Positions 175 through 18,517 of a DNA stretch of 44,641 nt are shown piece after piece. The notes beneath the pieces are model-generated. The model was given only the letters and a program-made list of their open reading frames with translations, did not search any database and had not been told where the DNA came from. The stretch's first letter is position 1, and each line of letters opens with the position of its first letter. The DNA is from Chloroflexota bacterium (GTDB lineage Bacteria > Chloroflexota > Limnocylindria > Limnocylindrales > CSP1-4), in assembly GCA_003169655.1 (NCBI GenBank), contig PNAZ01000162.1, positions 30,818-75,458 on the forward strand, in the 5' to 3' direction. Both the position numbers and the translations under genes were made by a program.

Positions 175-2331
175 TCAGGCCCGGCCGGCGGTCACCTCGT
201 CGGCCCGACTCCGCCCCGACAGGAGAATCAGGTCCTCGTGGAGCTCGAACCAGACGCTGTGGAAGCTGTCGACCCTGGGTGACGCCACATAGCGCTGGTC
301 GCCATCGGCGGCCAGGTGCGCCGCTCGGTCGAGGCGAGCGGAATAGGTCGCCAGGCGCGCCAGAGACGCGACAAGCGGTGACAGCCAGCGGGCCGCATCG
401 CCGTTGAGGACAGCCAGCTCAGCGAGCACACGGGCGTCGTACGCCGGATCCGCGTGGTCGTTGAGTGCCTCCAATCCGTCGATCATGCGCATCTGCCACG
501 CGGTCACCGTCTCCTTCATCCGACGGTCGAGCACGAGGAACACCTCGAGCGCCGCGCTCGCATGTTCCCGTCCCCAGCCGTCCCGGTCGTTCGCGAGGAG
601 CTCGCTGCCAACCGCCTTGCCCGCTGGAGCGAGCCGGTAGGAACCGGTCACGAGCTCGACGAGGCGGTCGGCAAGGAGCCCGTCGAGGCATGCCGAGATC
701 TCCTCGAGGTTCGAGAACTGCGCCTCCGCCAGTCCACTGAGCGTGCCATAGCCCTTGATGGCGAGGCAGCGCAGGACGTCCTCCCGGCTGGCCAACGACC
801 CTTCTCCGGTCTCCTCCGCCGGCGGCTCGCCGGCCGGTTCCGGACGGACCTCCGCCGATCGACCCACGCCGCCGGGCTCGATGCCCAGCTCGCGGGCCCA
901 GGCCAGGAGCTTCTTCGCCTCGGGGACGATGGCGACCTTCGTGACCAGCAGACCATCGAAGATCCCGCCCGTGCTGCCGTCGATCGTGATCGGCGTCCCA
1001 AGCGCGAGCAGCCGGCCCCCGATCGAGACGCCGTCGTCGCTGACAAGCACGGCGGAGGCACCCACGACGGCGGGGATCCCCCAGCCCCGGGCGACCACGG
1101 CGGCATGACTGGCGAGGCCACCCCGGGAGGTAAGGAGGCCCGCCGCCCGGGCCATCCCATGGACGTCATCCGGCGATGTCTCGGACCGGACCAGGATGAC
1201 CGAGCGGCCCGCTTCGGCGAGCATGACGGCAGCCTCGGGCGTCGTCGCGATCTCGCCCGCGGCCACGCCCGGCGACGCGGGCAGGCCAGTGGCGAGCGGG
1301 ACGACAGCGGCGCTGCGGCCGATCGTCACCCGGGGTGGATCGGCCAGGAGGTGGCCCACGCGCTCGACTGCCTGGGCCCGCGTCAGCGGGAAATCGGCAG
1401 CCTCGGCCATGTCGACCGCGATCCGCACGGCCGCCTGCGGGCTGCGCTTCCCGATCCGGCATTGGAGCAGCCAGAGCTTGCCCTGCTCGATCGTGAACTC
1501 GATGTCGCAGACATCCCGGTGGAAGCGCTCGAGCGCCGTGGCATCGCGCGCCAGCTCACTCGCCACGGATGGCAGGCGAGCCGCGAGCTGGGCCAGCGAT
1601 TCGGTCTGATGGCTGCCCGCGACCACGTCCTCGCCCTGGGCGTTGAACATCACATCGCCGTACATCGCCGGCTCGCCGGTGGCGGGATTACGCGTGAACA
1701 ACACGCCCGTAGCTGAGTCCAGGCCGCGGTTCCCGAAGACCATCGTCTGGATCGTGACGGCTGTCCCGAGGTCGTCCGAGATACCCTCGCGCTGCCGATA
1801 GGTCCGCGCCCGGTCGCTGTTCCAGGAGCGGAACACGGCCTGGATCGCCGCCCGGAGCTGGACCCAGGGATCGTCGGGGACGGTATCGACGCCGACAACA
1901 TCCTTGAACATCTGCTCGAACCGGGTCCGGCAGTCGACCGCGAACTTCGGGCTGGCCGAGGCAGCCGCCAGGCCCCGCGTCGTCGCATCGTTCAGGCCCA
2001 GGTTGAGGATGGTGTCCATCATTCCGGGCATCGACACGGGCGCACCGGAACGAACGGAGACCAGGAGCGGGTCGGTCGGGTCGCCGAAGCGCCTGCCGAT
2101 GCGCCCCTCGATGGTCGCCATGTGTTCGCGGATCTCGGCGTCGAGGCCCTCCGGCCAGCCGCTCGCGAGGTACGCATTGCAGGCAGGCGTGGTGATCGTG
2201 AACGCCGGCGGGACCGGCAAGCCCAGGTCGAGGGCCATGACGGTCAGGTTGGCCGATTTGCCCCCCATCAGGGCCTTGAGCTCCCCGAACGGAAGCCGAT
2301 GGCGGTAGTCGCAGTCGTAGACCCAGCTCAC
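175..2331 (-). CDS. Truncated pyruvate-phosphate-dikinase-like protein (ATP-grasp nucleotide-binding domain + phosphohistidine swivel domain + unrelated C-terminal domain)
   Basis: GTG start (MSWVYDCDY...). The N-terminus resembles PPDK (LMGGKSANL, LPVPPAFTITT, DPLLVSVRSGA..SMPGMMDT). Swivel motif TSRGGLASHAAVVARGWGIPAVVG is present. No PEP/pyruvate TIM-barrel follows; the last ~210 aa are unrelated sequence. Confidence 0.85.
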   Translation of the reverse strand: MSWVYDCDYRHRLPFGELKALMGGKSANLTVMALDLGLPVPPAFTITTPACNAYLASGWPEGLDAEIREHMATIEGRIGRRFGDPTDPLLVSVRSGAPVSMPGMMDTILNLGLNDATTRGLAAASASPKFAVDCRTRFEQMFKDVVGVDTVPDDPWVQLRAAIQAVFRSWNSDRARTYRQREGISDDLGTAVTIQTMVFGNRGLDSATGVLFTRNPATGEPAMYGDVMFNAQGEDVVAGSHQTESLAQLAARLPSVASELARDATALERFHRDVCDIEFTIEQGKLWLLQCRIGKRSPQAAVRIAVDMAEAADFPLTRAQAVERVGHLLADPPRVTIGRSAAVVPLATGLPASPGVAAGEIATTPEAAVMLAEAGRSVILVRSETSPDDVHGMARAAGLLTSRGGLASHAAVVARGWGIPAVVGASAVLVSDDGVSIGGRLLALGTPITIDGSTGGIFDGLLVTKVAIVPEAKKLLAWARELGIEPGGVGRSAEVRPEPAGEPPAEETGEGSLASREDVLRCLAIKGYGTLSGLAEAQFSNLEEISACLDGLLADRLVELVTGSYRLAPAGKAVGSELLANDRDGWGREHASAALEVFLVLDRRMKETVTAWQMRMIDGLEALNDHADPAYDARVLAELAVLNGDAARWLSPLVASLARLATYSARLDRAAHLAADGDQRYVASPRVDSFHSVWFELHEDLILLSGRSRADEVTAGRA

Positions 2332-2355
2332 CTCCGTCGCCCGACCTCCGGTAAT

Positions 2356-4599
2356 CTATCCATTGCCGCCCTCTTGCAATGACCGCCAGACCCGCTCCGG
2401 CGTCAGGGGCAGGTCCCGGATCACCGTCCCCGTCGCCTCGTGCACGGCGCCGGCGACTGCGGCCGAAACGCACAGGAGGGCTCCCTCGCTCATCCCTTTC
2501 GAGCCATATGGCCCCGGGCCATCCTCGTTCTCGACCATGTCACTGAGAAGCTCGAGCGGCAGGTCCATGCTGGTCGGGATCCGGTAGTCGATCGCGCCCA
2601 GGTTCCGGATCCGGCCCGATCCATCGAAGATGTAGTGCTCCATCAACGTGTGACCCAGGCCCATCACGGCAGCGCCCTCATCCTGCATCCTGACCTGGAG
2701 CGGATTGAGCGCCTTGCCGACATCGGAGACGGTGACGTGCCGGACCAGCACGATGTCGCCGGTCTCCCGATCGACCTCGGCCTCGATCGCCGTGCAGTTG
2801 AACTCGAAGAATGCGACGGAGCCACCGAGCGGATGGCCGGGATCGCCTTCCTTGCGCATCTCGCCGTTCCCGATCAGCTCGCCGCCCAGCGGCCCGAGGC
2901 CGGGCTTCAGGACGTCGACGATCGGGACCTCGCGCCCCGGCAGAAGGACGACCCCGTGCTCGACAGCGATCTCCGACGGGTCAATCCCTTCCAGCCGGGC
3001 AGCCATCGCGCGTACCTTCGACTGGATGTCGCGGCAGGCGTCCAGGACCGCGTTGCCCATCAGCACGGTCGATCGGCTGGCCGAGGTCTGCTGGTCATAC
3101 GGCACGACGGCGGTATCGCCCATCACCACGGTCACCCAATCGAGTGGTGCGCCCAGCTCGTCGGAGGCAATCTGGGCCAGGATCGTCCGTGCTCCCTGGC
3201 CCATGTCCGAGGTGCCCGCGAAGACGATGACGCTGCCGTCGGCCAACAGCCGAACCGTCGCGTAGGACAGTCCGGTCGTCGGTCCGGACTTGATCCCCAC
3301 GGCGATGCCGCGACCGCGGCCCGGTGGCAGCGGGGTCCCCCAGCCGATCAGCTCGGCGGCCCTGCGGACCACTTGCTCCCAGTGGCCATCGGCCGGGGTG
3401 TCGAATGGGATGAAGGCTTCGCCCAGACGAGCGAGGTTCAGCAGCCGGAGCTCGAGCCGATCGATCCCGAGGGCCAGGGCCCCGGCGTCGATATTCGACT
3501 CGACAGCCCAGTTGACCTGTGGCGCGCCGAAGCCACGGAAGGCGGTCGAGGGTGTCGTGTTGGACAGGATGCTCCGTGCGGTGATCCGCGCCGCGGGTAC
3601 GCGGTATGGTCCGCAGCCCGGGTAACTGCCTTTGCCGACCACTCGATCGGCGATGTCCGCGTACGCGCCGATGAGGTAGTCGGCGGCGATGTCCTGGAAT
3701 GCGAATGTGCCATCCGAGTGGAAGCCCGTCCGAACCCTGATCTTCGCGGACGCTCGGCGGGCCGCCTGGAAGGTTTCCTCGAGGGTGAGGACCAGGCGTA
3801 CCGGCCGGTCGGCCCGGAGTGCCATCAGGGCCACGAGCGGCTCGTACTTGGCGTGCTGCTTGCCGCCAAAGGCGCCACCGGGGTCCGGCGCATGGACGCG
3901 CACCTTCGCGAGCGGCAGCCCGAGGATGTCCGCCAGCACCTTCTGCAACCAGTTCGGGTGCTGGATCGAGCTCCATACGGCGATTCCGTCGCCATCGGGC
4001 GCGGCCATGAACGCGTGCGGCTCGATGGCGAAGTGGGTCACCATCGGGAACTCGTAGGTATGTTCGATGACGAGATCGGCCTGGGTTGCCTCGACATCAC
4101 CCCAGCCGACGAGGTGCTCGCGCAGGACATTCGTCGCGGCGAGGTTGTCGCCCGGCCGCAGGGCCGCGTCCTGGACGAGGGGCGCAGCGGGGTCGAGTGC
4201 CCCTTCGATCGTGAAGACGGCGGGCAGCTCCTCGTACTCGACCTTTACCAGGCGGGCCGCTTCATCGGCCGCATCCCGGCTGTCTGCGGCCACCGCGGCG
4301 ACGGGTTCGCCGTGGTACTTCGTCTCACCGACCGCCAGCACCGGCCGGTCCTGGAACTGGGGGCCGAAGCGCGGGACCGGCTGGGGCAGGTCAGCGGCGG
4401 TCATCACGAGGCGGACTCCCGGGACCCGTTCAGCCGCACTCGTATCGATCGACACGATCCGGGCCCGGGCGCAGTCGAGGGTCACGAGCTTCGCATGGAG
4501 GATATCGGGCAGGCGGATGTCGGCGACATAATGCTGGAGCCCGGTGACCCGCCCCCGTCCTCCGACGCGCTGTGGCGAGGCCCCGACCCGACCGATCAT
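2356..4599 (-). CDS. Molybdopterin-binding large subunit of a xanthine dehydrogenase / aldehyde oxidase / CoxL-family hydroxylase
   Basis: ATG at 4599 (MIGRVGASPQRVGGRGRVTG...) overlaps the small-subunit stop as ATGA. Family motifs: AFGGK, TAFRGFGAPQ, MGQGARTILAQIA, GSKGMSEGAL. The 1111-aa track ORF is a spurious 5' extension. Confidence 0.9.
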   Translation of the reverse strand: MIGRVGASPQRVGGRGRVTGLQHYVADIRLPDILHAKLVTLDCARARIVSIDTSAAERVPGVRLVMTAADLPQPVPRFGPQFQDRPVLAVGETKYHGEPVAAVAADSRDAADEAARLVKVEYEELPAVFTIEGALDPAAPLVQDAALRPGDNLAATNVLREHLVGWGDVEATQADLVIEHTYEFPMVTHFAIEPHAFMAAPDGDGIAVWSSIQHPNWLQKVLADILGLPLAKVRVHAPDPGGAFGGKQHAKYEPLVALMALRADRPVRLVLTLEETFQAARRASAKIRVRTGFHSDGTFAFQDIAADYLIGAYADIADRVVGKGSYPGCGPYRVPAARITARSILSNTTPSTAFRGFGAPQVNWAVESNIDAGALALGIDRLELRLLNLARLGEAFIPFDTPADGHWEQVVRRAAELIGWGTPLPPGRGRGIAVGIKSGPTTGLSYATVRLLADGSVIVFAGTSDMGQGARTILAQIASDELGAPLDWVTVVMGDTAVVPYDQQTSASRSTVLMGNAVLDACRDIQSKVRAMAARLEGIDPSEIAVEHGVVLLPGREVPIVDVLKPGLGPLGGELIGNGEMRKEGDPGHPLGGSVAFFEFNCTAIEAEVDRETGDIVLVRHVTVSDVGKALNPLQVRMQDEGAAVMGLGHTLMEHYIFDGSGRIRNLGAIDYRIPTSMDLPLELLSDMVENEDGPGPYGSKGMSEGALLCVSAAVAGAVHEATGTVIRDLPLTPERVWRSLQEGGNG

Positions 4600-5069
4600 C
4601 GCCGGCCAGCCTCCGCCGTCGCGAGGATCGCCTGGGTGATCTGCTGATAGCAGCCGCAGCGACACAGGTTCCCGGCCATCCCCTCCTCGATCTCGGCGAT
4701 CGTCGGATGGGCGCTGGCCTGGAGCAGCGCATGGGCCGAGATCACCTGGCCAGGGATGCAGAAGCCGCACTGGACCCCGCCTTCGTCGAGGAACGCCTCC
4801 TGGATCGGAGTCAGCCGACCCCCGGTGGCCAGGCCTTCGATGGTCGTCACCACCGCGCCGTCCGCTTCGACGCCGAGCATCAAGCACGAGTCCACCGTGC
4901 TCCCGTCGACGATGACCGTGCAGGCACCGCACTCCCCCACGAGGCAGCACTCCTTGGCCCCGGTCAGCGCCAGGTCGTCGCGCAGGACGTCCAGGAGCGT
5001 GTGCTGTGGCGCGACCCGCAGCGAGCGGCTGCGCCCGTTGACGGTCACCTCGATTGGAATCGTGGTCAT
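4596..5069 (-). CDS. [2Fe-2S]-binding small subunit of the Mo hydroxylase (CoxS/XdhC-small type)
   Basis: Cys clusters CLVGECGACTV, CGFCIPG and CRCGCY. ATGA overlaps on both sides. Confidence 0.92.
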   Translation of the reverse strand: MTTIPIEVTVNGRSRSLRVAPQHTLLDVLRDDLALTGAKECCLVGECGACTVIVDGSTVDSCLMLGVEADGAVVTTIEGLATGGRLTPIQEAFLDEGGVQCGFCIPGQVISAHALLQASAHPTIAEIEEGMAGNLCRCGCYQQITQAILATAEAGRR

Positions 5070-5938
5070 CCTGGCGCTCCCCCTCCAGCCAGCCGATCGA
5101 GTGCGATCCCGACAGCGCGGCGACCGAGAACGCGCAGCATTGCGCGGCGGTACTCGGGACTGGCGCGCATCGACCCGGCTGATGGGCTGGCGGTCGCGAA
5201 CAACTCCTCGAGCACGGCGCCTTTCGCGTCGTCGTCCGCGGCGTCATCTGCCAGGACCCCCGAGCTGTCGACGGCGAGGACGGGCCGGGGCCCGACACTA
5301 CCGAACGCGAGGCGAGTGACTCCGGCTGCGTCGACCAGGCAGGCCAGGGTGACCGAGGCAAGGTCGTGACCGCGTCGACGAGTCCGCCGGAGATGGACCG
5401 AACCAGTCCGTTGGGTGGGCAGCGGCAGCTCGATCGCCATGACGAGTTCTCCGCGCCGGAGTGTGGTCTCGCCGGAGCGCACGAAGAAGTCCCTGATCGG
5501 GATCCGGCGGCTCCCGGCGCTGCCAATCGCGACGACCTGCGCACCGTACACGAGCAGCGCCGGGGCCGTGTCGGCGGCCGGCGACGCGTTGCAGATATTG
5601 CCGCCCAGGGTCGCCCGATTCCGGATCTGGACCGCGCCGACGACGGCCGCCGCCTCGGCCAGGGCGACGAAATGGCGGCGCACTCGCTCATCCGCCGCGA
5701 TCTCGCTCATCACCGTCGTGGCGCCGATCGTCAGCCGGCCGGCCTCCTCGCGGATGACCGGCCGCAGTTCAGGGATCCGCTTGACATCGACCACGATCGT
5801 TGGCTGCAGGCTGCCGTCCCGCAGACGGATGATCAGATCCGTGCCACCGGCCAGCAAGCGGCAGTCGGAACCGCCTGACTCGAGGGTCTTGAATGCCTGC
5901 GCGAGTGTGGCTGGCCGGCTGTAGGCAAAGCTCCTCAC
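5066..5938 (-). CDS. FAD-binding medium subunit of the Mo hydroxylase (CoxM type)
   Basis: GTG start MRSFAYSRPATLAQAF... is a typical CoxM N-terminus. LLAGGTDLII FAD motif. Overlaps the small-subunit start. Confidence 0.88.
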   Translation of the reverse strand: MRSFAYSRPATLAQAFKTLESGGSDCRLLAGGTDLIIRLRDGSLQPTIVVDVKRIPELRPVIREEAGRLTIGATTVMSEIAADERVRRHFVALAEAAAVVGAVQIRNRATLGGNICNASPAADTAPALLVYGAQVVAIGSAGSRRIPIRDFFVRSGETTLRRGELVMAIELPLPTQRTGSVHLRRTRRRGHDLASVTLACLVDAAGVTRLAFGSVGPRPVLAVDSSGVLADDAADDDAKGAVLEELFATASPSAGSMRASPEYRRAMLRVLGRRAVGIALDRLAGGGAPG

Positions 5939-5954
5939 GTTCCGTGGATCCGGC

Positions 5955-6842
5955 TCAGAGGACCTTGTCGACCTCGTCCATCAGCACCTGCGGGGTGGCT
6001 GCGCGGACGAAGTAGTAGGGGCGCTCGCTGAAGCGTGCCACGAACCCGGCGCGGGCCTTCCGAAGCGCATCGGTATCGACGATGGGCATCGGCTGACCAG
6101 GCGCGAGCAACTCGTTGAGGAGGAAGTAGTTCTGGACAGAATGGAGCGTCTGGAATTGACGCTCGAACGGGATCATCTGGACACAGCTCGGGTCGAAGTT
6201 GCCATCGATCGCCGGCACGACGACGACGTCGACGACACTCGGTTCGGCATGGAAGGTCCAGGTCGGCATCTCGCCGAAGAACTTCTCCACCGCCCGGTTC
6301 GGAGCGGCCTTGTCCGCCCGCTCGGTGCCCTCGGTGCGTTTCTTGAGGAACGGCTCCCGGGAGCCTGCGACCACCAGGCCTGCCTCATCGACGACGGTCG
6401 TCTCGGTCGACACCAGGAGTGCCCCGCGGCGGCAGGCCTCGATCTGACCCATGCTCTTGCCGTGGTTCGACTCGCCACCCAGGAACAACACGGTCCTGTC
6501 GCCATAGCGGACCGCGGAGGCGTGGAAGGGATGGAGACCGACGGCCTCCATCCGGAGCGCGAGCATGGTCACCACGACTTTCTGGATCGGCCCGGCCGGC
6601 CATGGTCCGCTGAAGTGCATCGCCCGTCCGTCGTAGGCGATGGATCGCTCGCCGTCCTGGCGCCACACGATGTCCGGCTCTGGCAGCGTAACCTCGGGCG
6701 AGATCCGCACGTCGGCGAGGCGGTAGTTGAGAAATGTCAGATCCTCGAGCACGTGCTCGCGCGGTTCGCCGCCGTAGACGTCGACCCGCAGCCGCGCGGC
6801 CCCGGCCGACATCTCCTCGGTCAGTTGCAGGTCGCCGTTCAT
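5955..6842 (-). CDS. HPr-kinase-C-terminal-like P-loop protein (function unknown)
   Basis: I start it at ATG 6842 (MNGDLQLTEE...), just downstream of the transaldolase stop. The 345-aa track ORF would overlap transaldolase. FLGGESNHGKSMGQIEACRRGALLVSTETTVVDE resembles the HprK P-loop and the following RGH.LV.DD segment. Confidence 0.6.
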   Translation of the reverse strand: MNGDLQLTEEMSAGAARLRVDVYGGEPREHVLEDLTFLNYRLADVRISPEVTLPEPDIVWRQDGERSIAYDGRAMHFSGPWPAGPIQKVVVTMLALRMEAVGLHPFHASAVRYGDRTVLFLGGESNHGKSMGQIEACRRGALLVSTETTVVDEAGLVVAGSREPFLKKRTEGTERADKAAPNRAVEKFFGEMPTWTFHAEPSVVDVVVVPAIDGNFDPSCVQMIPFERQFQTLHSVQNYFLLNELLAPGQPMPIVDTDALRKARAGFVARFSERPYYFVRAATPQVLMDEVDKVL

Positions 6843-6855
6843 GGATTCCCTTCGG

Positions 6856-7965
6856 TCAGCCGGGCTTGGTTTCCGGGTCGGGCAGGACCACGTCACGGAT
6901 CGCCCCGACGAGGTCGTGGTAGGACTTGATGAAGCCGCGCAGCGTCCTGACCGTCGCTCCGTAACTGTCGAACTCGTCGACCGCGAGGCCATCTGGCTCG
7001 AACGCCCGTCCGAAGTCCGGGATCCGCGTCAGCAATTCCTTGATCGTGCCCAGGTCCACCGGCTCGTCGATGCGAGCCACCGGCGAGATCCCGCTGCCGT
7101 TGAAGCGGACCTGCCAGGCATGCGGGATGGTCAGCGCCAGGTCGCCACCAACGAACTCTGTCCAGTGGAGGCGGTGGCGATAGGCCGCGACGAGGAGCCG
7201 CGTCCGGTATGAGCGCTCGTTGAACAACCCGTAGGCGCGTTTGAAGGCTGCGATGCCGGCCCAGTTCAGGACGTCCGGATGGATCGCGATTCCGTCGCGC
7301 TCGACCAGGATCCGCATCCAGTCGTCGAGGCGTCCGACCATCAAAGTGCAGACCGGGGTCATGGCCGCGACATCGCCACCCCGAGCAGCCAGCGCATCGA
7401 GGCCTCGCTCGACGGCTTCCGCCACGGCGAGGGCCTGCGCGACGGTGAAGCACACGGTGGCATTGATGTTGACGCCCGCTGCGGTTGCCAGCTCAATCGA
7501 CTGGATCCCTGCCCGGCTGGCCGGGAACTTGACCTGGATGTTCGGGGCGAGGCCCGCGAACCGGATGCCCTGCTCGAGCATGCGCTCAGCATTCGGGTAG
7601 TTCTGGGGGTTCGTCTGCAGCGACAGCCGGCCCTTGCGTCCGCCCTCGCGCCGGAAGACCGGCTCGAGGATGCTCGCGCCCCGAACCGCCATCTCCTCGA
7701 TGATCGCCCAGGTGAGGTCCATCTCGGTCCAGGCCGGATTCTCGACGGCGAGCTGGCGGATCCGTGGGATCCAGTGCGCCTTCTCGGCCCGGAGCACATC
7801 GAGCACGATGCTTGGATTGGAGGTGGCGCCGGACGCGCCTCGAGCGAGCGCATACTCGAGCTCGGCGACGGCACACGAGTCATTCCAGTAATCGGTGGGC
7901 GTGTCGTCAGTCATCCGGAGCAACGGGCTGTCGACGAAGCTCTGCAGCACGGGGGCGGTCATCAT
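6856..7965 (-). CDS. tal: Transaldolase-family protein
   Basis: GATSNPS motif and Schiff-base lysine context IQVKFPAS. SD GGAGGA lies upstream of ATGATG at 7965. Confidence 0.85.
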   Translation of the reverse strand: MMTAPVLQSFVDSPLLRMTDDTPTDYWNDSCAVAELEYALARGASGATSNPSIVLDVLRAEKAHWIPRIRQLAVENPAWTEMDLTWAIIEEMAVRGASILEPVFRREGGRKGRLSLQTNPQNYPNAERMLEQGIRFAGLAPNIQVKFPASRAGIQSIELATAAGVNINATVCFTVAQALAVAEAVERGLDALAARGGDVAAMTPVCTLMVGRLDDWMRILVERDGIAIHPDVLNWAGIAAFKRAYGLFNERSYRTRLLVAAYRHRLHWTEFVGGDLALTIPHAWQVRFNGSGISPVARIDEPVDLGTIKELLTRIPDFGRAFEPDGLAVDEFDSYGATVRTLRGFIKSYHDLVGAIRDVVLPDPETKPG

Positions 7966-8013
7966 GTTCCATCCTCCGGCTTCAGCACTGCAGCTGGGTC
8001 TGGGTCGAGTATA

Positions 8014-8026
8014 ATCGATTATCGAT
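8014..8026. promoter_or_regulatory. 13-bp AT-rich palindrome ATCGAT-T-ATCGAT in the divergent tal / ABM promoter region (candidate operator overlapping -10-like elements)
   Basis: Sequence read directly. TATAAT at 8010-8015 overlaps it on the plus strand. GATAAT lies on the minus strand ~50 nt upstream of the tal ATG. The same 12-mer recurs at 28938-28949. Confidence 0.45.
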
Positions 8027-8080
8027 GGCTTGCCAATCCGAGCCGACCACCTGGGAACCTCCGACTTCGAGGCGAGACGG

Positions 8081-8371
8081 ATGGCCTACATCGTTTGCGC
8101 AACCTGGAAGGCCAAGCCCGGCGAGGACGGTACCGTGCTCAACCTGCTTCGCCAGATCAGGACAGCATCGGCCAATGAGCCCGGCTGCCTCCTGTTCGCG
8201 GTTCACCGCTCACGCCAGGATCCAAGCGTGTTCTTCCTCTACGAGCAGTACGTCTCGGAGGCCGCCTTTCAGGCTCACGCGACTTCGGATCATGTCCGCC
8301 GCCTCGTGCTCGAAGATGCCGTCCCCCGCCTTGAGTCCCGCCGGCGCGAACTGTTCGAGCTCGTCGAGTAG
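8081..8371 (+). CDS. Antibiotic-biosynthesis-monooxygenase (ABM/Dabb) domain protein
   Basis: ~96 aa from ATG 8081 (MAYIVCATWKAKPG...FFLYEQYVSEAAFQAHATSDHV). This is the typical ABM ferredoxin-like fold pattern. The 8030 start in the track adds an implausible leader. Confidence 0.75.
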   Translation: MAYIVCATWKAKPGEDGTVLNLLRQIRTASANEPGCLLFAVHRSRQDPSVFFLYEQYVSEAAFQAHATSDHVRRLVLEDAVPRLESRRRELFELVE

Positions 8372-8387
8372 GCTGACCAGGGCATGA

Positions 8388-10187
8388 ATGGGAGTCGATT
8401 CTGTGCCGCTCGGTGAGGAGGTCCTGGGCAGGTTCCTGGGGGATGCCTCGTTCCCCGTGGCTTGGGATTCCGAGATCGAGAAGGACTTCTTCTGGGTCTA
8501 CGACGACCTCCATTGTCCGCATCCCGTCAGCCCCATGTTCTTCGACATCGGTGGCTGGTGGTTGACCTGCGACCACATGTTCCGGCGTTTCGGAACCCCG
8601 TTCGCCGTCGACTGGCTGGCCAAGAACGTCAACGGCTACGTCTACACGACCGCGATCCCACCTGACCCGACGCTCCGGATCGACTCGACCGAGTACAGCG
8701 CCCGATACGGCGCACGCGTGCCGCGCGATGCCGATTTTGGCGCAACGATGGGGGCCTACCTCGACACGGTCCTGCCGGTCTATGGTGACCAGTTCGCCGA
8801 TTGGTGGCGGGACCGGCTGCGTCCCGAGATGGAACGCAACTTCGTGTACCTCGAGGAACGCCTGGACGCCGCCGAGCGAATGACCCTGGCCGAGGTGGCG
8901 TGCCTGCTCGAGGACGCGATCGATGTCCACGACCGCCACTGGAAGATCCACTGGATGCTGAACTTCGCGCAGCTCTCGGCAACCTTGAATCTTCGCGCGG
9001 TCATGGAGAAGGCCCGCGGGAACGTCGACGAGCAGCTCCTCGGCCGGCTCCAGAACTCGGCGTCGGACCGCAACTGGGACTCGATCGAGGCACTCTGGCA
9101 GATGAAGAACGAGGTGCGCGACGACCCCGAGCTGCGCCCGGCGTTCGGACTCGACGGGGTGCCCAGGATCGTCGAGGCACTCCGCGCGACCGAGCGCGGG
9201 CAGCGCTTCATCACCGAACGGATCACGGCGTATCAGCGCGAGTTCGGCTGGCACGCCGTGTGGAGCCACGAGTTTATCTTCCCAACCCTGCGCGAGCAGA
9301 TGGAGCCGGTCATCGAGCTCGTGCGAGGCTACCTCGAAACGGACTACGACTACCCTTCAGCCATCGAGGCGATGCGCCTCGACATCGAGGCCGCATCGGT
9401 GGAGATCCTCGATGGCTTGACCGATACGGCGCTCGAGGAGATGCGGGCGGCCAATGCAGTCAATCTGCGGATGGCCCCGCTCACCCCCGACCACCATTTC
9501 TACATCGACCAGGGAGCGAACGCACACGTTCGCCTTGTCCTGATCGCCGCCGGGCGGAAGCTGGTCGAAGCCGGCCGCCTTGACCAGCCGGATGACGTCG
9601 TGTTCCTGCGCTACAACGAGTTGCGCGGCCTGATCGGCGGCGCCGTCAACGTCGATGGCCGGGCCCTGGTGGCGAGCCGACGAGCCGAGCGTCGAGGGTC
9701 GGAAAAGCTGCGACCGCGGGATTGGGTGGGCACGGCGACAGCCTCGCAGCTCGCGTTCCCGTACCTGGTCAACTGGGGATATCCGGACCGCTTCTACCAG
9801 AAGCAGCTGGCCGACGAGCGGATCGTTACCGGGCTCGGGGCGTCACCCGGTGTCGTCGAGGGAATCGCCCGGGTCGTGCGTACGGTCGACGAATTCGACG
9901 AGGTCCGGGCGGGCGACATCCTGGTCTGCCAGATGACGAATCCGGCCTGGGTGGTTCTCTTCACGAAGATCGCCGGTCTGGTGACCGATACTGGCGGGAC
10001 GACCTCGCACCCGGCCGTCCTGGCCCGCGAGTTCGGGATCCCGGCGGTCATCGGCACCTCGGTGGCCACCCAGCGGATCCTCACTGGCGACAGGCTGCGC
10101 CTCGATGGCTCGGCGGGCCTGGTCGAGATCCTCCGCGATGAGCCGACGAAACCGGCGGTTCAGCTATCCGCCCCGATCGGGGGATGA
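8388..10187 (+). CDS. PEP-utilizing-enzyme mobile (swivel) domain protein with a large uncharacterised N-terminal domain
   Basis: C-terminal ~90 aa: GASPGVVEGIARVV...ILVCQMTNPAWVVLFTKIAGLVTDTGGTTSHPAVLAREFGIPAVIG, the classic phosphohistidine swivel. No ATP-grasp or PEP-binding barrel. The start could instead be GTG 8403, which has GGGAG upstream. Confidence 0.85.
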   Translation: MGVDSVPLGEEVLGRFLGDASFPVAWDSEIEKDFFWVYDDLHCPHPVSPMFFDIGGWWLTCDHMFRRFGTPFAVDWLAKNVNGYVYTTAIPPDPTLRIDSTEYSARYGARVPRDADFGATMGAYLDTVLPVYGDQFADWWRDRLRPEMERNFVYLEERLDAAERMTLAEVACLLEDAIDVHDRHWKIHWMLNFAQLSATLNLRAVMEKARGNVDEQLLGRLQNSASDRNWDSIEALWQMKNEVRDDPELRPAFGLDGVPRIVEALRATERGQRFITERITAYQREFGWHAVWSHEFIFPTLREQMEPVIELVRGYLETDYDYPSAIEAMRLDIEAASVEILDGLTDTALEEMRAANAVNLRMAPLTPDHHFYIDQGANAHVRLVLIAAGRKLVEAGRLDQPDDVVFLRYNELRGLIGGAVNVDGRALVASRRAERRGSEKLRPRDWVGTATASQLAFPYLVNWGYPDRFYQKQLADERIVTGLGASPGVVEGIARVVRTVDEFDEVRAGDILVCQMTNPAWVVLFTKIAGLVTDTGGTTSHPAVLAREFGIPAVIGTSVATQRILTGDRLRLDGSAGLVEILRDEPTKPAVQLSAPIGG

Positions 10188-10198
10188 AGGAGGTTCCC

Positions 10199-10873
10199 GT
10201 GGCAACTGCTCGAGCACTCTCCCGCAGCGTGCTCGGCGAGCAGGTCAAGGATCGCATCCTCGAGGGGATCCTCCGGGGCGACTATCCCCCCAACGCTCGG
10301 ATCGTTGAAACGCAAGTCGCACGCGAGCTCAACACCAGCCAGGCCCCGGTCCGGGAGGCCCTCCGCGCTCTCGAGGCCCTCGGCTTCGTCGAGATCACGC
10401 CATTCAAAGGCGCCCGGCTGCGCAGGCCCACCCGCCGCGAGATCCTCGAGGCCTACGCCGTCCGCTCTGCGCTCGAGTCGCTCGGTGCGCGCTCGGCCGT
10501 GCCAGGCATGACCCAGGCCGGGATCGACGAACTCGCCGGGTACTGCGAGGCGATGCACGCGGCGGCCGAGGCCGGCGACGGCCACGGCGTGGCCGAGGCA
10601 GATGCCAGGTTCCACGGCCGGCTCCTGGAGATGGCCGACAACCGCACCCTGGACAAGGTCTGGCGCTCGCTCGAGCCGTTCCTGCGGACGTACATCACGC
10701 TCGTCGTCCCGGGAGCCGATCCGCGCTGGTCGGCCGAACTCCACGCTCCCATCCTGGCGGCCGTGAAGCGCCGCGATACCGAAGCGGTCGTAGCGGCACT
10801 CGAGCGGCACTTCGTCGAGGCGAGCGCAAACATGGCTCGGCGCTGGCCGGATGGCGACCTTCGGGGTGGTTGA
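10199..10873 (+). CDS. GntR-family transcriptional regulator, FadR/FCD subfamily
   Basis: wHTH segment VKDRILEGILRGDYPPNARIVETQVARELNTSQAPVREALRALEALGFV plus a helical FCD-like C-terminus. GTG 10199 has a strong AAGGAGG 6 nt upstream. The alternative ATG 10184 overlaps the previous stop. Confidence 0.88.
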   Translation: MATARALSRSVLGEQVKDRILEGILRGDYPPNARIVETQVARELNTSQAPVREALRALEALGFVEITPFKGARLRRPTRREILEAYAVRSALESLGARSAVPGMTQAGIDELAGYCEAMHAAAEAGDGHGVAEADARFHGRLLEMADNRTLDKVWRSLEPFLRTYITLVVPGADPRWSAELHAPILAAVKRRDTEAVVAALERHFVEASANMARRWPDGDLRGG

Positions 10874-10894: not shown

Positions 10895-11281
10895 TCAGCC
10901 AGGCAGACCCTGCTTGATCATCGAGAGCGATGGGTCCGGCCCCTTGAAACCGACGAGGTATTCCAGCCTGATCGGCGCGAAGCACTCGTAGAAGACGGCG
11001 TCCTCATCGCCAAGCTGCCGAAAGGCATGGATCCAGTTCGACGGAATCACGAGCAGAGAACCGGGGCCCACCTCGGCCTCCTCGTCGCCCACCTTTGCCC
11101 ACAGCCGACCATGCTCCACGAGCATGATCTGCTCGGCCTCGTGGCTGTGCTCCGGGATGACCACGCCGCCGCGATAGACGATCCGGGTCATCATCGCTTT
11201 CTCGCCCGACACGGTCTGGCGGTGGACGCCGGGGATGTACTCGACGGTAGGGAACTCATCCCAGGTCGTGATCTGACGCAT
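10895..11281 (-). CDS. Cupin-domain protein
   Basis: 128 aa with cupin motifs (PEHSHEAEQIMLVEHG ... GPGSLLVIPSNWIH). GGGAGG SD upstream of the ATG. Confidence 0.8.
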   Translation of the reverse strand: MRQITTWDEFPTVEYIPGVHRQTVSGEKAMMTRIVYRGGVVIPEHSHEAEQIMLVEHGRLWAKVGDEEAEVGPGSLLVIPSNWIHAFRQLGDEDAVFYECFAPIRLEYLVGFKGPDPSLSMIKQGLPG

Positions 11282-11296
11282 GGTGGACCTCCCTGC

Positions 11297-12337
11297 TCAG
11301 CTGTCTGGGGTCGTGCTGGTCTCGGCGAGCCGGGCGGCGCGCGCCCGCGCGTCGAGGCCGCGCAGGATGAGCTCGGGCGTAACCGGCAGCTCGTCGATCC
11401 GCACGCCCGTCGCGTGGTAGATGGCATTGACGATCGCCGGGATCGGCGAGTTCGCCGTCATCTCACCGACGCCCTTGACCCCGTACGGTCCGTTCGACGA
11501 CGGGTACTCGAGCACGACGCACTCGATCTTCGGCATCTCGTAGGCGCCGGGCATCAGGTATTCGCTGAAATCCTTGGGGCTGTAGGCGGGATCGGGGTAG
11601 TACGGCTGGGTCGTCTCGTACAGGGCATGCGACATCCCCATCCAGGCACCGCCCACGATCTGGCCCTTGACCAGGGCCGGGTTGATCTGGCGCCCCACCT
11701 CGTAGGCGCTCCTGATGCTGAGGACTGTCACCTCGCCCGTATCGGTATCAACCGCGACCTCGGCCACGGTGCAGGCGTGGGCTTCGGTCGAGTCGGGGTC
11801 CATGGCGCCGGTCTCGGGATCGACTGGACTCCTGGGCTTCATGTAGACGCCGCGGCCGGCGATCGTCCTGCCGTACTTGAACTGCGCCGCGGCGGCGATG
11901 TCGGCGATCTTCATCGACCGGTCGGGAGCACCGCGGACCAGGATGTTGCCCTGGCCATCGAACTCGAGATCGCTTCGGGCAGCTTCGAGTTCATCTTCCG
12001 CGACGTCGAGGAGGGCCTCGCGCGCCTCCTGGGCGGCCGCGATGACCGCGTTGCCGACGCGGTGCGTCGCCCGGCTCGCGAAGGTGCCCATGTCGTGGGG
12101 TCCGGTGTCGGTGTCGGCGGTGTCGATGACGACGTCGTCCATGCCCACCCCGAGGGCCTCGGCGGCGATCTGGCCAATGACCGTGCGCAAGCCCTGGCCG
12201 AGGTCCGTGGCCGACAACGAGACGACGAACGAACCGCTCGTTGTCGCGTGGATCAGCGCCTGCGACGGGTCACCGCCAAGGTTCATGCCGGTCGGGTAGT
12301 TGACGGCGGACAGGCCCGTGCCGCGGAGCTTCACCAC
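11297..12337 (-). CDS. Mo hydroxylase molybdopterin subunit, C-terminal half (separate ORF)
   Basis: GTG start 1 nt after the stop of the upstream half. Sequence VKLRGTGLSAV..., DLGQGLRTVIGQIAAE, GPYGVKGVGEMT matches the C-terminal domains of XDH/CoxL-family large subunits. Confidence 0.85.
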   Translation of the reverse strand: MVKLRGTGLSAVNYPTGMNLGGDPSQALIHATTSGSFVVSLSATDLGQGLRTVIGQIAAEALGVGMDDVVIDTADTDTGPHDMGTFASRATHRVGNAVIAAAQEAREALLDVAEDELEAARSDLEFDGQGNILVRGAPDRSMKIADIAAAAQFKYGRTIAGRGVYMKPRSPVDPETGAMDPDSTEAHACTVAEVAVDTDTGEVTVLSIRSAYEVGRQINPALVKGQIVGGAWMGMSHALYETTQPYYPDPAYSPKDFSEYLMPGAYEMPKIECVVLEYPSSNGPYGVKGVGEMTANSPIPAIVNAIYHATGVRIDELPVTPELILRGLDARARAARLAETSTTPDS

Positions 12338-12338
12338 C

Positions 12339-13679
12339 TCACACCCCGCCTTCGGGTCGCCGGGCCGATGTCATCGCCCGGAACCTGGCCGGCAGCTCGT
12401 GGCCGACGAGCCCGGCTGCCGCCTGCATCGTCTCGATCAGGGTCGCATCCTCGACCAGCTTGCGATGGGGCTTCATGTCGCCATCCCGATAGGCATTGAT
12501 GAAGTGGATCGACCACGGATCGAGGCCCACGACCTCGGCGATCTTGTCCATCTGGACCTCGATCGCAAACGAGGCCATGGTGATCCCGAAGCCGCGCATT
12601 GCGCTGGACGGCTGGCGGTTCGTATACACGCAGTAGGCGTCGATCGAGACATTCGGGATGGCGTACGGGCCGGCGGCGTTCGCGGCATGCTTCGTGAGCG
12701 CATACGGCGTCTGGCGGCTGTAGGCACCAGAGTCGGCGTAGCTCGTCACCTTGCGGGCGATGATCCGACCGTCGGCCATGACTCCGTCCTTCATGTAGAT
12801 CCGCCAGGCGCTGCGCGTCGACGAGACCTGCATCTCCTCGGAGCGGCTGAAGGCATACCTGACCGGGCGACTCGTCTTCATCGCCGCGAGCGTCGCGAGC
12901 GGCTCGACGATGACATCGACCTTGCCGCCGAACCCGCCACCCACGGTGCCACCGACGAAATGGAGCTTGTTGCCCGGGACCTGGAGAATGATCGCGGTGT
13001 TGTCGAGGCTGAAGTAGACCGCCTGGGTGTTGGTATACACGGTGTACCGCCCATTTGCCTCGGGCACGGCGATGCATGCGGTCGTCTCGGTTGGCGCCTG
13101 CTCGATCGGCTTCGTGTTGTAGACACCTTCGACGATGTGGTCGGCCCGGGCGAACGCTGCTTCGACGTCGCCGAAGCGCACGCGCCGGCAGGGATGGCCC
13201 TCGTACATGAACGTGTTATTGCCCCAGTGAGTCACGATCGGGGCACCGGGCCGGAGGGCCTCTTCGACTTCAAAGACCGCCGGAAGCTCCTCGAGATCGA
13301 GCTTCACCCGGGCCACTGCTTCGAGGGCAGCGTCCTCGGATTCGGCGACGATCGCGACGATCGGCTCGCCCTTGTAGCGGACACGGTCTTCGGCCAGCAC
13401 GAACTCCTCTTCGGGCTCCACCCCGATCAGGCCGAGGATCGTGTAGACGTTGTGGGGCACGTCGGCGTGGGTCAGGGCGCGGACGAAGCCTGGGACGCGC
13501 TCCGCTTCGGACAGGTCGACGCCCAGGATCCGGGCGTGGTGGAGCGGGCTGCGCACGATCTTGAGATGGAGCAGGCCCGGGAACGAGCGGTCCGTGGTGA
13601 ACTGGGTCCGACCGGTCACATGGCCGATCCCGTCACTCCGCGGAACCGACCTGCCGACGACGTTCATGGCCGGACTCAT
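12339..13679 (-). CDS. Mo hydroxylase molybdopterin subunit, N-terminal half (separate ORF)
   Basis: ATG 13679 (MSPAMNVVGRSVPRSDGIGHVTG...) overlaps the 2Fe-2S subunit stop as ATGA. Motifs GGGFGGK and SAMRGFGI. Ends at TGA 12339-12341. The 560-aa track ORF is 5'-extended through the small subunit. Confidence 0.85.
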   Translation of the reverse strand: MSPAMNVVGRSVPRSDGIGHVTGRTQFTTDRSFPGLLHLKIVRSPLHHARILGVDLSEAERVPGFVRALTHADVPHNVYTILGLIGVEPEEEFVLAEDRVRYKGEPIVAIVAESEDAALEAVARVKLDLEELPAVFEVEEALRPGAPIVTHWGNNTFMYEGHPCRRVRFGDVEAAFARADHIVEGVYNTKPIEQAPTETTACIAVPEANGRYTVYTNTQAVYFSLDNTAIILQVPGNKLHFVGGTVGGGFGGKVDVIVEPLATLAAMKTSRPVRYAFSRSEEMQVSSTRSAWRIYMKDGVMADGRIIARKVTSYADSGAYSRQTPYALTKHAANAAGPYAIPNVSIDAYCVYTNRQPSSAMRGFGITMASFAIEVQMDKIAEVVGLDPWSIHFINAYRDGDMKPHRKLVEDATLIETMQAAAGLVGHELPARFRAMTSARRPEGGV

Positions 13680-14167
13680 CGGCGCTGCGCTCCCGGCGCG
13701 GCGCCGGCCTGCGCGGCGCCTTCGACAGCGGCGACGATCGGCTCGTAGCCGGTGCAGCGGCAGATGTTGCCGGCAAGCGCGTCGAGGATCTCCTCTCGCG
13801 TCGGCCGCGGATTGTGCTCGAGGAGCGCCTTCGAGACCATGATCATGCCGGGCGTGCAGTAGCCGCACTGGAAGCCGGAGGCGTCGAGGAACGCCTGCTG
13901 GAGCGGATCCAAGCCATCGACCGGTGTGATCGACTCGAGCGTCGTCACCTGCTGGCCGGCCACGTCTTCGGCTGGCAGCAGGCAGGCGAGCACCGGTTCG
14001 CCCTCGACCAGGACGGTGCAACTTCCGCAGCCGCCCTGGCGACAGCCTTCCTTGACGGCCGTGTACCCGAGCTGGTAGCGCAGGACTGCCTGGAGCGTCG
14101 TCATCGGCTTGACCATGACCTCGACCTCGCGGCCGCCCAGCACAAAGGTGACGATCTTCGAGCCCAT
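13676..14167 (-). CDS. [2Fe-2S]-binding small subunit of second Mo hydroxylase
   Basis: ATG 14167 (MGSKIVTFVLGG...). Cys clusters CRQGGCGSCTV, CGYCTPG and CRCTGY. Confidence 0.9.
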   Translation of the reverse strand: MGSKIVTFVLGGREVEVMVKPMTTLQAVLRYQLGYTAVKEGCRQGGCGSCTVLVEGEPVLACLLPAEDVAGQQVTTLESITPVDGLDPLQQAFLDASGFQCGYCTPGMIMVSKALLEHNPRPTREEILDALAGNICRCTGYEPIVAAVEGAAQAGAAPGAQRR

Positions 14168-14168
14168 C

Positions 14169-15029
14169 CTAGGCACTCTCCGCCACGCGGGCTCGATGCT
14201 GTTCAACGATGAGCTCGAGTGCTCGCCGAACGAAGACGCCGACCATCCGGCGGCGGTACCACTCGGTGGCAAGGGCGTCGGTCAAGGGGCGGCATTCGCG
14301 CACGGCCGCTGCGGCCGCCTGCTCGATGACCCCGGCCTCGAGGGCCGAGCCGACGATCGCCGCCTCCGCACCCGCGACCCGAATTGGGTGCGGGCCGGCC
14401 GCACCGAGGGCGATTCGCGCAGCACTGATCTGGCCGTCGCGCCGTTCGAGGGCGACGGCCACCGTCACGACGGCGGGGGTATTGGCATGCTTCCGGCCAA
14501 ACTTGATGAAAGCCGTCTGGCGCACCGTCGTGGGCACGCTGATCTCCACCAGCAGCTCGTCGGCAGCCAGCGCGTTGGTCATGAAGCCGGTGTGGAAGTC
14601 GGCCAGCGGAACGACCCGCGTGCCCCGTGGGCCGGCCAGGCGCACCTGCGCGTCGAGCGCGAGCAGGGCAACCGCGACGTCGCCTCCCGGAGAAGGCGTG
14701 AACAGGTTGCCGCCGACCGTGGCCATGTTGCGGATTGGCCAGCTCGCCATGTTCCGGGCGGCCTCACGGAGAAGAGGAACGCCCTCCTCGGCGAGGAGCT
14801 GGGTGAGCGTCGTTGTCGCTCCGATCCCGAGAACGTCGCCACGCCGCTCGATGCCGCCGAGACCCGCATGGCGAAGGCTCATCACCCGGTCCGGCATGGC
14901 AATGCCCTCGTTGATCAGGGGCATCGTCAGCGTCCCGCCGGCCATCACCAGGAGCTCCGGCCCGTGACGCTCGAGTAGGTCGATCGCTTCGGGCAGCGAG
15001 CGGGGAACCAGGTATTCGCCCACGGTCAC
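14169..15029 (-). CDS. FAD-binding medium subunit of second Mo hydroxylase
   Basis: I prefer GTG 15029 (VTVGEYLVPRSLPEAIDLL...), which has AGGAG 8 nt upstream and a typical CoxM N-terminus. The track start, GTG 15110, is the alternative. Confidence 0.8.
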   Translation of the reverse strand: MTVGEYLVPRSLPEAIDLLERHGPELLVMAGGTLTMPLINEGIAMPDRVMSLRHAGLGGIERRGDVLGIGATTTLTQLLAEEGVPLLREAARNMASWPIRNMATVGGNLFTPSPGGDVAVALLALDAQVRLAGPRGTRVVPLADFHTGFMTNALAADELLVEISVPTTVRQTAFIKFGRKHANTPAVVTVAVALERRDGQISAARIALGAAGPHPIRVAGAEAAIVGSALEAGVIEQAAAAAVRECRPLTDALATEWYRRRMVGVFVRRALELIVEQHRARVAESA

Positions 15030-18490: not shown

Positions 18491-18517
18491 CGTGTCAATC
18501 CCCTCCGCCGGCGTCGC

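Follow-up and report, generated by a model that had tools for sequence, protein, structure and literature searches.

A Limnocylindria gene cluster joins a putative swivel-histidine dikinase to a molybdenum hydroxylase and includes a VadK-type kinase fused to a partner-like domain

The stretch of DNA analysed here (44,641 nucleotides, positions 30,818 to 75,458 of contig PNAZ01000162.1, assembly GCA_003169655.1; hereafter the window) comes from a Chloroflexota bacterium of the Limnocylindria (CSP1-4). Between positions 175 and 10,873 it carries nine genes that gene calls and Pfam and NCBIfam assignments place in two tightly packed divergent operons, and that encode a three-subunit molybdenum (Mo) hydroxylase, a 718-aa short relative of pyruvate phosphate dikinase (PPDK), a 599-aa protein with a C-terminal swivel histidine, a 295-aa P-loop protein, a protein of the transaldolase (TAL)/FSA family, an ABM-family protein and a GntR/FCD regulator. 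On balance, gene associations and analogies with characterized systems lead us to regard these genes as probably, if only modestly so, a catabolic cluster of Limnocylindria in which a swivel-His dikinase would phosphorylate a hydroxylated small molecule and the Mo hydroxylase would then act on it. We infer that the substrate class is most likely a hydroxy-aromatic or a hydroxy-N-heterocycle. An ATP-dependent activation-plus-hydroxylation route was one of the possibilities raised in an earlier note on this DNA, and it remains the best reading in the light of the gene associations and of the analogies with HpdA, HpeH/PpsA and VadK.

To follow the cluster in other genomes, one genome per GTDB species was scanned with the 295-aa protein as query, and a relative of this protein was found in 443 species genomes. 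The survey of close relatives covers the best 80 of these 443 loci, almost all from Candidatus Limnocylindria metagenome-assembled genomes (MAGs), with 77-93% identity for the 295-aa protein; the best matches for several cluster proteins are likewise in Candidatus Limnocylindria/CSP1-4 Chloroflexota MAGs. Counts were taken from the 45 loci that have a full 10 kb on each side. The genes for the 295-aa protein and for the FAD and iron-sulfur (FeS) subunits are present in 45/45 of them and that for the Mo subunit in 44/45, followed by the 599-type (43/45), 718-type (40/45), GntR (39/45), TAL (27/45) and ABM (6/45) genes. The order 295-aa, FAD, FeS, Mo is invariant, and conservation within the cluster is highest for the 295-aa protein (mean identity 80%). 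Distant lineages retain much of the association, several further distant 295-aa homologues lying on contigs too short for gene context. Locus L083 (295-aa homologue 56% identical) carries the 599-type, GntR, cyclase, TAL and Mo/FeS/FAD genes and a PPDK_N-only gene that overlaps the gene of the 295-aa homologue; in L085-L087 (39% identical, 35% GC) the 599-type gene lies between FeS and Mo, with FAD in the same operon, and a PPDK_N-only gene comes after the 295-aa homologue; in L088 the 295-aa homologue comes directly after the 599-type gene; and L090 holds the 599-type, GntR and FAD/FeS/Mo genes with a 491-aa short PPDK and a separate 209-aa protein, without the 295-aa gene. The GntR/FCD gene is also found in the distant loci L083, L089 and L090. 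Because it recurs in 80 species-level genomes and in distant lineages, this gene association is far beyond chance. The three phosphotransfer proteins that the earlier note had singled out do occur together in many genomes, with both swivel histidines conserved, and the strong synteny of the 45 full loci and the distant ones excludes that the cluster is syntenic nowhere else, which the note had left open.

Additional genes accompany the cluster in relatives. About 30 of the 80 loci have cyclase and zinc-dependent alcohol dehydrogenase (Zn-ADH) genes nearby, which in L001 separate the Mo gene from the 718-type gene; an aldehyde dehydrogenase gene is near the cluster in 17 of the 80, and split transketolase and short-chain dehydrogenase (SDR) genes flank it in related genomes. 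The L085-L087 contigs (GCA_038896655.1 / GCA_029775995.1) have an SCP2 gene upstream of the 295-aa homologue and a second complete Mo hydroxylase adjoining.

The 599-aa protein (8388-10187, plus strand) has a PEP-utilizers domain (PF00391) at residues 507-577, with the swivel His541 (codon 10008-10010, plus strand) in the motif GGTTSHPAV; at least 65 related sequences share the form GGT(T/V)SHPAV. This domain was the only part recognised earlier, and the N-terminal 450 residues indeed gave no Pfam match at E=10 with our local Pfam copy. That description proved too narrow: precomputed Pfam data assign PF27448 (Rph_4th) to homologues, residues ~30-585 align, at scores below the respective cutoffs, to the NCBIfam models PRK08296, RedH, PigC and RPH (rifampicin phosphotransferase), and the RPH structure 5FBS matches residues 382-582 with His541 aligned to the catalytic His of RPH. 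Homology identifies the 599-aa protein as the H component of an RPH-like two-component small-molecule dikinase of the PpsA/CreH/HpeH type. Dikinases of this kind, whose ATP-dependent reaction yields AMP and Pi, act on phenol (PpsAB), 4-cresol (CreHI) and hydroxyphenylethanones (HpeHI). The ATP is bound by a separate ATP-grasp protein, the I component; in HpeH and PpsA its phosphate is taken up by the swivel His of the C-terminal domain and delivered to a phenolic hydroxyl (PMC12167813).

The likeness extends to the order of a rifampicin (RIF)-binding-like domain and a C-terminal swivel and to the Ser before the catalytic His, as in PpsA and CreH, and the distant loci L083, L085 and L089 carry an ATP-grasp-only I component beside the H component. 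The cluster of the window departs from PpsAB, CreHI and HpeHI in three respects: (i) its ATP-grasp partner is PPDK-derived, with a swivel His of its own and an extra domain; (ii) the downstream enzyme is a Mo hydroxylase, where those systems have a P450, a biotin carboxylase or a UbiD carboxylase; and (iii) the 295-aa protein has no counterpart there. A related cluster is found in the cultured Thermomicrobium roseum DSM 5159 (L089, megaplasmid NC_011961.1, TRD_RS09580-09625), with an H component 50% identical to that of the window and genes for GntR, cyclase, ATP-grasp-only, hypothetical, FAD, fumarylacetoacetate-hydrolase-family, ABM, H-component, Mo and FeS proteins. Just upstream of it (L089, 6490-8593) lie genes for a PEP-hydrolase-family protein and for an ATP-binding protein of the Tm-1-like family. 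This family, also known as UPF0261, includes MarK, for which aromatic kinase activity was demonstrated recently, and two types of aromatic kinase may stand side by side in this locus.

The 718-aa protein (175-2331, minus strand) matches Pfam PPDK_N and PEP-utilizers and the NCBIfam model for short PPDKs (NF004531, 499 bits against a cutoff of 456), a family to which Rv1127c belongs. Its residues 16-481 align to PPDK structures (E=1e-117), and the alignment breaks off at about residue 481, the equivalent of PPDK residue ~529 and just ahead of the barrel that binds phosphoenolpyruvate (PEP) or pyruvate; PEP-utilizers_C, the Pfam domain of this barrel, gave no match. The ATP-grasp motifs are conserved, and His409 (codon 1105-1107, minus strand), in the motif GGLASHAAV found in 50 related sequences, aligns with the catalytic His of PPDK. 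The domain content proposed in the earlier note, an ATP-grasp and a His-swivel without the PEP/pyruvate barrel, are borne out by these matches. The protein is not, as that note had it, simply truncated, since some 204 further residues (about aa 515-718; 178-789, minus strand) form a domain that AlphaFold2 (AF2) folds with confidence (pLDDT 94). A winged helix and a helical bundle are predicted in it, with the conserved motif SPRVDSYHxVWFELHEDL...GRA. No Pfam domain matched it at E=10 in our local copy and no PDB structure gave a significant match across its whole length; Foldseek returned weak matches to the winged helices of DtxR, MntR and MarR (E about 0.02-0.1) over ~76 of the 204 residues.

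Homologues of this C-terminal domain are encoded by stand-alone genes of about 200 aa directly downstream of short PPDKs, namely in L090 (a 491-aa short PPDK followed by a 209-aa homologue) and on a Mycobacterium avium plasmid (542 aa followed by 201 aa; hhalign probability 99.9, E=1e-31). Others, annotated as hypothetical or MarR-family proteins, are on Diaphorobacter and Rhodococcus plasmids, whose short PPDKs are 42-43% identical to the 718-aa protein. An H-type PEP-utilizing enzyme is also encoded at all four of these loci. The arrangement recalls VadK (Rv1127c) of M. tuberculosis, a PPDK-derived autophosphorylating histidine kinase, described as a virulence kinase with no known phospho-acceptor, in which His422 is the counterpart of His409 and to which the operonic partner Rv1126c binds tightly (PMC13400623). 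The first 480 residues of the 718-aa protein share with VadK the ATP-grasp, the swivel His and the missing PEP/pyruvate domain; in M. tuberculosis the partner is a separate protein, whereas here it would be fused in one chain, and VadK is encoded beside methylcitrate-cycle genes whereas the 718-aa gene belongs to a Mo hydroxylase/H-component cluster. From sequence, the 718-aa protein is best described as a VadK-type kinase fused to an Rv1126c-like partner. The label Rv1126c-like was set by the homologues in L090 and on the M. avium plasmid and not by an alignment with Rv1126c; the size (~200 aa) and position that we assume for Rv1126c were used as a lead only. The Rhodococcus pyridinivorans plasmid pA (L096, 1-12600) carries a cre-like cluster with a P450, a ferredoxin reductase, an SDR, an aldehyde dehydrogenase, a SurE-type phosphatase and an H-type enzyme, together with an Rv1126c-like "MarR family" gene and a 502-aa short PPDK equipped with a swivel His of its own; an ATP-grasp-only gene was not found within the region shown.

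No ATP-grasp-only I component of the L083 type was found in the window or within 10 kb at the 80 Limnocylindria loci, nor is such a gene among the genes called within 10 kb in L001. It is present where the VadK-type gene is missing (L083, L085 and T. roseum) and absent from the window, L001 and L090, where a VadK-type gene is present. Because 718-type or short PPDK genes and ATP-grasp-only genes are mutually exclusive across loci, the comparison suggests that the 718-aa protein takes the role of the I component. Both the 599-aa and the 718-aa protein can be placed in a family (H component and VadK, respectively). The earlier note would have counted against the cluster a placement that brings with it a known substrate in an already described pathway, but neither a known substrate nor a complete described pathway can be assigned through them.

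The three genes of the Mo hydroxylase are adjacent and overlapping, and encode separate subunits with all expected Pfam domains above cutoff: a 290-aa FAD subunit (5066-5938, minus strand; FAD_binding_5 and CO_deh_flav_C), a 157-aa small subunit with two [2Fe-2S] clusters (4596-5069, minus strand; Fer2 and Fer2_2; ten Cys) and a 747-aa Mo-pterin subunit (2356-4599, minus strand; Ald_Xan_dh_C, MoCoBD_1 and MoCoBD_2). By this domain content the enzyme is a three-subunit bacterial Mo hydroxylase of the xanthine-oxidase family. None of the subunits reached an NCBIfam equivalog cutoff. The top PDB match of the Mo subunit is the alpha subunit of 4-hydroxybenzoyl-CoA reductase (1RM6, E=3e-95), ahead of quinoline 2-oxidoreductase, and its best NCBIfam match is the model of the same reductase (427 against a cutoff of 995). 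A 4-hydroxybenzoyl-CoA reductase was nevertheless rejected: the scores for TIGR03193, TIGR03194 and TIGR03195 are far below the cutoffs, and the FAD subunit, with 3 Cys in 290 aa, is without the [4Fe-4S] insertion. The cluster also differs from that of the Thauera aromatica reductase (1RM6) in lacking a CoA ligase. The Thauera enzyme belongs to a phenol route that starts with phenylphosphate synthase. The nearest plasmid relative of the Mo subunit (41% identity) is in a Variovorax cluster with genes for an SRPBCC protein, a FAD monooxygenase, an isochorismatase-family protein, an alpha/beta hydrolase and a "leucyl aminopeptidase", which looks like a pyridine-ring or maleamate-type catabolic cluster.

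A dikinase and a Mo hydroxylase have already been brought together genetically, in contrast to the earlier note, which knew of no described pathway that joins such a phosphotransfer module to a Mo hydroxylase, an HprK-like protein and a transaldolase. Ensifer adhaerens HP1 encodes in its 3hpd cluster a Mo hydroxylase, HpdA1-A4, that converts 3-hydroxypyridine to 2,5-dihydroxypyridine and is active only when co-expressed with orf9 ("pyruvate-phosphate dikinase") and orf10 ("PEP-utilizing protein mobile subunit"); knock-outs of orf9 and of orf10 each lose growth on 3-hydroxypyridine, and the authors left the mechanism open (bioRxiv 10.1101/2020.01.08.898148). According to the published descriptions, the 3hpd cluster and that of the window share a xanthine-oxidase-family Mo hydroxylase, a PPDK-like protein, a PEP-utilizing swivel protein and a GntR regulator. 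HpdA differs in its fourth, separate SRPBCC subunit and its cluster in the presence of maleamate-pathway genes, neither of which occurs in the window cluster (no SRPBCC/CoxG domain was found by Pfam among its genes), and neither a 295-aa PEPCK-like protein nor a TAL-like gene is reported for 3hpd. The coupling of an RPH-like dikinase to a Mo hydroxylase is already known from this system; what is new here is the VadK-partner fusion in place of an I component, the highly conserved family with the predicted fold of PEP carboxykinase (PEPCK) to which the 295-aa protein belongs, and the FSA-like aldolase. We know of no precedent in the searchable literature for any of these three in such a context.

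The 295-aa protein (5955-6842, minus strand; P-loop GGESNHGKS at aa 122-130, nt 6453-6479) belongs to no Pfam or NCBIfam family. A search of 1.84 billion representatives recovered 184 relatives, mostly fragments, with about eight diverse full-length sequences, and its AF2 model, built from a 16-sequence alignment, reached a pLDDT of 88. The best Foldseek matches of this model are ATP-dependent PEPCKs (E=3e-7, TMq 0.41-0.47, about 350 columns), followed by the C-terminal domains of HprK/P (E~1e-3, TM 0.23-0.40). The family profile also matches the sequence of Thermus PEPCK (1J3B, E=0.005) over a segment in which AGEIKK...PMHASA...GLSGTGKT of PEPCK corresponds to AGEIQK...PFHASA...GGESNHGKS of the family, and which we take to comprise the PEPCK-specific motif, the metal-binding His and the kinase-1a P-loop. 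Set against this, Pfam PEPCK_ATP gives no significant match (E=0.32), the chain is about half as long as PEPCK (295 against ~530 residues), the TM values are only 0.4-0.47, and its P-loop is of the form GE(S/E)NHGK(S/T). The predicted fold and the family profile indicate a protein closer to ATP-PEPCK than to HprK, better called a mini-PEPCK-fold protein and a member of neither family. Of the former designation as an HprK-like P-loop protein, the P-loop is retained; the likeness to HprK is not, PEPCK being the better match in both fold and sequence.

Apparent fusions of the 295-aa protein with FCD, FAD_binding_5 or Fer2_2 fragments (P0123, P0213, P0240 and P0253) were rejected as Rosetta-stone evidence, because the fragments follow the genomic order and the proteins look like merged gene calls in frameshifted assemblies. 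No homologue was found on the plasmids of PLSDB by tblastn or in the T. roseum counterpart cluster. In L092 (982-2216), a 257-aa homologue (42% identical) is followed by an overlapping CoxG/Polyketide_cyc2 (SRPBCC) gene, an extra subunit of the kind that characterises the hydroxylases HpdA and PicA. A distinct family of ~300-aa hypothetical proteins adjoins H-type enzymes on the Diaphorobacter and M. avium plasmids (L095, 6311-7225; L097, 10730-11620; 35% mutual identity), in clusters that also hold a short PPDK and an Rv1126c-like gene; a relationship with the 295-aa protein was rejected, the hhalign probability being below 1%.

The 369-aa TAL protein (6856-7965, minus strand) matches Pfam TAL_FSA (PF00923, 116 bits), whereas all NCBIfam TAL models score far below cutoff and no FSA equivalog is reached. 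In the alignment to PDB structures its KFPAS faces IKVPAT, with the Schiff-base Lys kept, and its SLQ faces SLE; a Gln (S-x-Q) stands at the position of TalB Glu96 in 45 of 47 homologues, a state which we take to be that of FSA aldolases, Glu being presumably that of TAL. On these residues it is a divergent member of the transaldolase/FSA family, FSA-like at TalB-96. The 96-aa ABM-family protein (8081-8371, plus strand; Pfam ABM, E=2.5e-20) is encoded ahead of the H component, an order also seen in T. roseum.

In the function that we favor, the 718-aa protein would bind ATP in its ATP-grasp domain and autophosphorylate His409, as has been shown for VadK, with the fused Rv1126c-like domain standing for the separate, tightly bound partner of mycobacteria. 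The 599-aa H component would hold the substrate in its RIF-binding-like domain and pass the phosphate of His541 to a substrate hydroxyl, as shown for HpeH and PpsA; His541 could receive this phosphate either directly from ATP on the ATP-grasp domain of the 718-aa protein or by a His-to-His relay. The Mo hydroxylase would then hydroxylate the phosphorylated or otherwise activated substrate, by analogy with the requirement of HpdA for orf9 and orf10. As the constant extra partner, the 295-aa protein would most likely handle the phosphoryl group at a nucleotide site, for example by moving it from the phosphorylated product to ADP or Pi or as a third subunit of the dikinase. The FSA-like aldolase and, where present, the ABM protein may process downstream products, and the GntR/FCD protein could regulate both operons from the shared intergenic region. 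A bolder version remains tentative and, to our mind, rather doubtful: a multi-protein phosphotransfer machine would gate the Mo hydroxylase, with phosphate passing from the His of the VadK fusion to that of the H component and on to the substrate, which would then be hydroxylated or dehydroxylated, while the mini-PEPCK would return the phosphoryl group to ADP, possibly with carboxylation or decarboxylation.

Several observations weigh against a dikinase-hydroxylase route. The SRPBCC subunit characteristic of HpdA is missing from the window cluster, and no ring-cleavage dioxygenase or maleamate-pathway genes occur in the Limnocylindria cluster; the aldolase found here and the Zn-ADH, cyclase, aldehyde dehydrogenase and split transketolase of relatives fit sugar or aldehyde chemistry at least as well. 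To our knowledge, no VadK-type protein has been shown to serve an H component, and the I component could be encoded elsewhere in the genome, the search having covered the loci. The 718-type gene is also the least conserved core gene (mean identity 63% in the 45 full loci) and its position varies. The published I components of phenolic dikinases are ATP-grasp-only and PEP-synthase-like, not PPDK-like (PMC12167813), and VadK is described as a regulator of methylcitrate-cycle enzymes in M. tuberculosis (PMC13400623).

A different role for the 718-aa protein, which we hold unlikely, would be that of a regulator: a VadK-type autophosphorylating histidine kinase whose fused winged-helix/helical domain binds DNA or target enzymes and tunes them by ATP or phosphate status, the phosphate of the 599-aa protein coming from an ATP-grasp protein encoded elsewhere. 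VadK does interact with metabolic enzymes as a regulatory kinase in M. tuberculosis (PMC13400623), the C-terminal domain begins with a DtxR/MntR/MarR-like winged helix and has stand-alone homologues annotated as MarR-family, and the low conservation and variable position of the 718-type gene point the same way. The winged-helix matches are weak, however, and cover little more than a third of the domain (~76/204 residues), the cluster already has its GntR/FCD regulator, and the presence of an ATP-grasp-only protein in the cluster only where the 718-type or short PPDK is missing suggests a functional replacement.

The sugar-type genes raise the question of a role in sugar or C3 metabolism, in which an aldehyde set free by the FSA-like aldolase would be oxidized by the Mo enzyme, as an aldehyde oxidoreductase comparable to archaeal glyceraldehyde dehydrogenase, and the acid or enol so formed would be phosphorylated by the dikinase and mini-PEPCK, together a split kinase of the PEP-forming or glycerate type. 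Besides the FSA-like Gln and the PEPCK-like fold of the 295-aa protein, the split transketolase, aldehyde dehydrogenase, Zn-ADH and SDR genes of relatives and the sugar transport and metabolism genes downstream in the window agree with such a role, and all three hydroxylase subunits match NCBIfam glyceraldehyde dehydrogenase models. The match of the alpha subunit, at 321 bits, is nonetheless far from the cutoff of 790 and is exceeded by those to the 4-hydroxybenzoyl-CoA reductase and XdhA models, and aromatic or N-heterocyclic rings are the substrates of the closest Mo-subunit relatives in the PDB and on plasmids. The H component has an RPH-type substrate domain and not a PEP/pyruvate barrel, and the T. 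roseum counterpart carries fumarylacetoacetate-hydrolase-family and cyclase genes, so that we consider this role quite improbable. Least probable is that the 295-aa protein is an HprK/P- or PDRP-like kinase/phosphorylase switching the dikinase through a residue beside the swivel His, as PEP synthase and PPDK are generally known to be regulated by phosphorylation of a Thr two residues before the catalytic His: the P-loop, the constant proximity of the 295-aa gene to swivel-domain genes and the Foldseek recovery of HprK/P C-terminal domains (22-24% identity over ~115 residues) would agree with it, but two residues before the swivel His the 718-type has Ala (GGLASH), and in the H type Thr and Val are about equally frequent there (GGTTSH/GGTVSH), and the lack of a conserved phospho-acceptor there led us to reject this mechanism, the more so as PEPCK, a small-molecule kinase, matches better in fold and sequence, including the AGEIKK-like motif, as no Hpr_kinase_C match was obtained even at E=10, and as the P-loop GGESNHGKS differs from the GxSGxGKS of HprK/P.

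If the bolder version, with a phosphate relay from the VadK fusion, is correct, the ancestral job of VadK-type kinases could have been that of the ATP-side component of small-molecule dikinases, and the mycobacterial virulence kinase would be a derived, orphaned form. The gene fusion and the recurring neighborhoods tie VadK to its Rv1126c-like partner and to H-type enzymes, which offers a testable hypothesis on its target, and the cluster would join three recent lines of work that have been separate so far, on HpdA, HpeHI and VadK. The coupling of dikinase and Mo hydroxylase genes is widespread and ancient, extending over hundreds of Limnocylindria species, Thermomicrobium and the lineage with 35% GC, and its natural variants, with an I component or a VadK-type protein and with or without the 295-aa protein, lend themselves to dissecting it. 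The 295-aa protein itself defines a small, highly conserved family of predicted PEPCK fold without a database model. Limnocylindria are abundant uncultured bacteria of soil and freshwater, and a catabolic cluster that is nearly universal among them would be a lead to their food sources.

The genes of the window, whose GC content is ~69%, were chosen by third-position GC and then checked with Pfam and NCBIfam. Their coordinates confirm two divergent operons around one promoter region, as had been proposed. Spacing in the minus-strand operon runs from a 4-nt overlap to a 24-nt gap, and the ATG of the Mo subunit overlaps the FeS stop as ATGA; on the plus strand, the 229-aa GntR/FCD regulator (10184-10873; Pfam GntR and FCD) closes the operon. 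The 115-bp intergenic region (7966-8080), read directly from the sequence, contains TATAATCGATTATCGAT, in which TATAAT is followed at once by two ATCGAT palindromic hexamers one base apart. One sigma-70-like site was found in this region, on the minus strand, where shuffled sequences lead one to expect 0.0, and the repeat search reported no inverted-repeat operator there. The ATCGAT pair overlapping the -10 region is a candidate operator for the GntR/FCD protein.

Directly beyond the cluster, on the minus strand (10895-15110), lies a second Mo hydroxylase operon, with FAD (14169-15110) and FeS (about 13676-14272) genes and a cupin gene (10895-11281) after it. Its Mo subunit is encoded by two ORFs in different frames that meet at 12337/12339. 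Because the same different-frame split recurs in L042, L044 and L065, it looks like a natural two-gene large subunit, as in chains A/B of nicotinate dehydrogenase (3HRD), and not like a frameshift. Creatininase-family and amidohydrolase genes follow directly downstream (15536-17526, minus strand), a neighborhood that hints at N-heterocycle or lactam catabolism. A long sugar-type operon (17558-28100, minus strand) comes next, with genes for an ROK kinase, two BPD_transp_2 permeases, a double ABC ATPase, a Peripla_BP_4 protein, a SIS protein, a DeoC-type aldolase, a xylose-isomerase-like TIM barrel, a GFO/IDH/MocA oxidoreductase and a metallo-beta-lactamase-fold protein. Further on, the window holds two genes unrelated to the cluster, for a proline-racemase-family protein (31321-32400) and a DUF3417-containing alpha-glucan phosphorylase (33904-36717).

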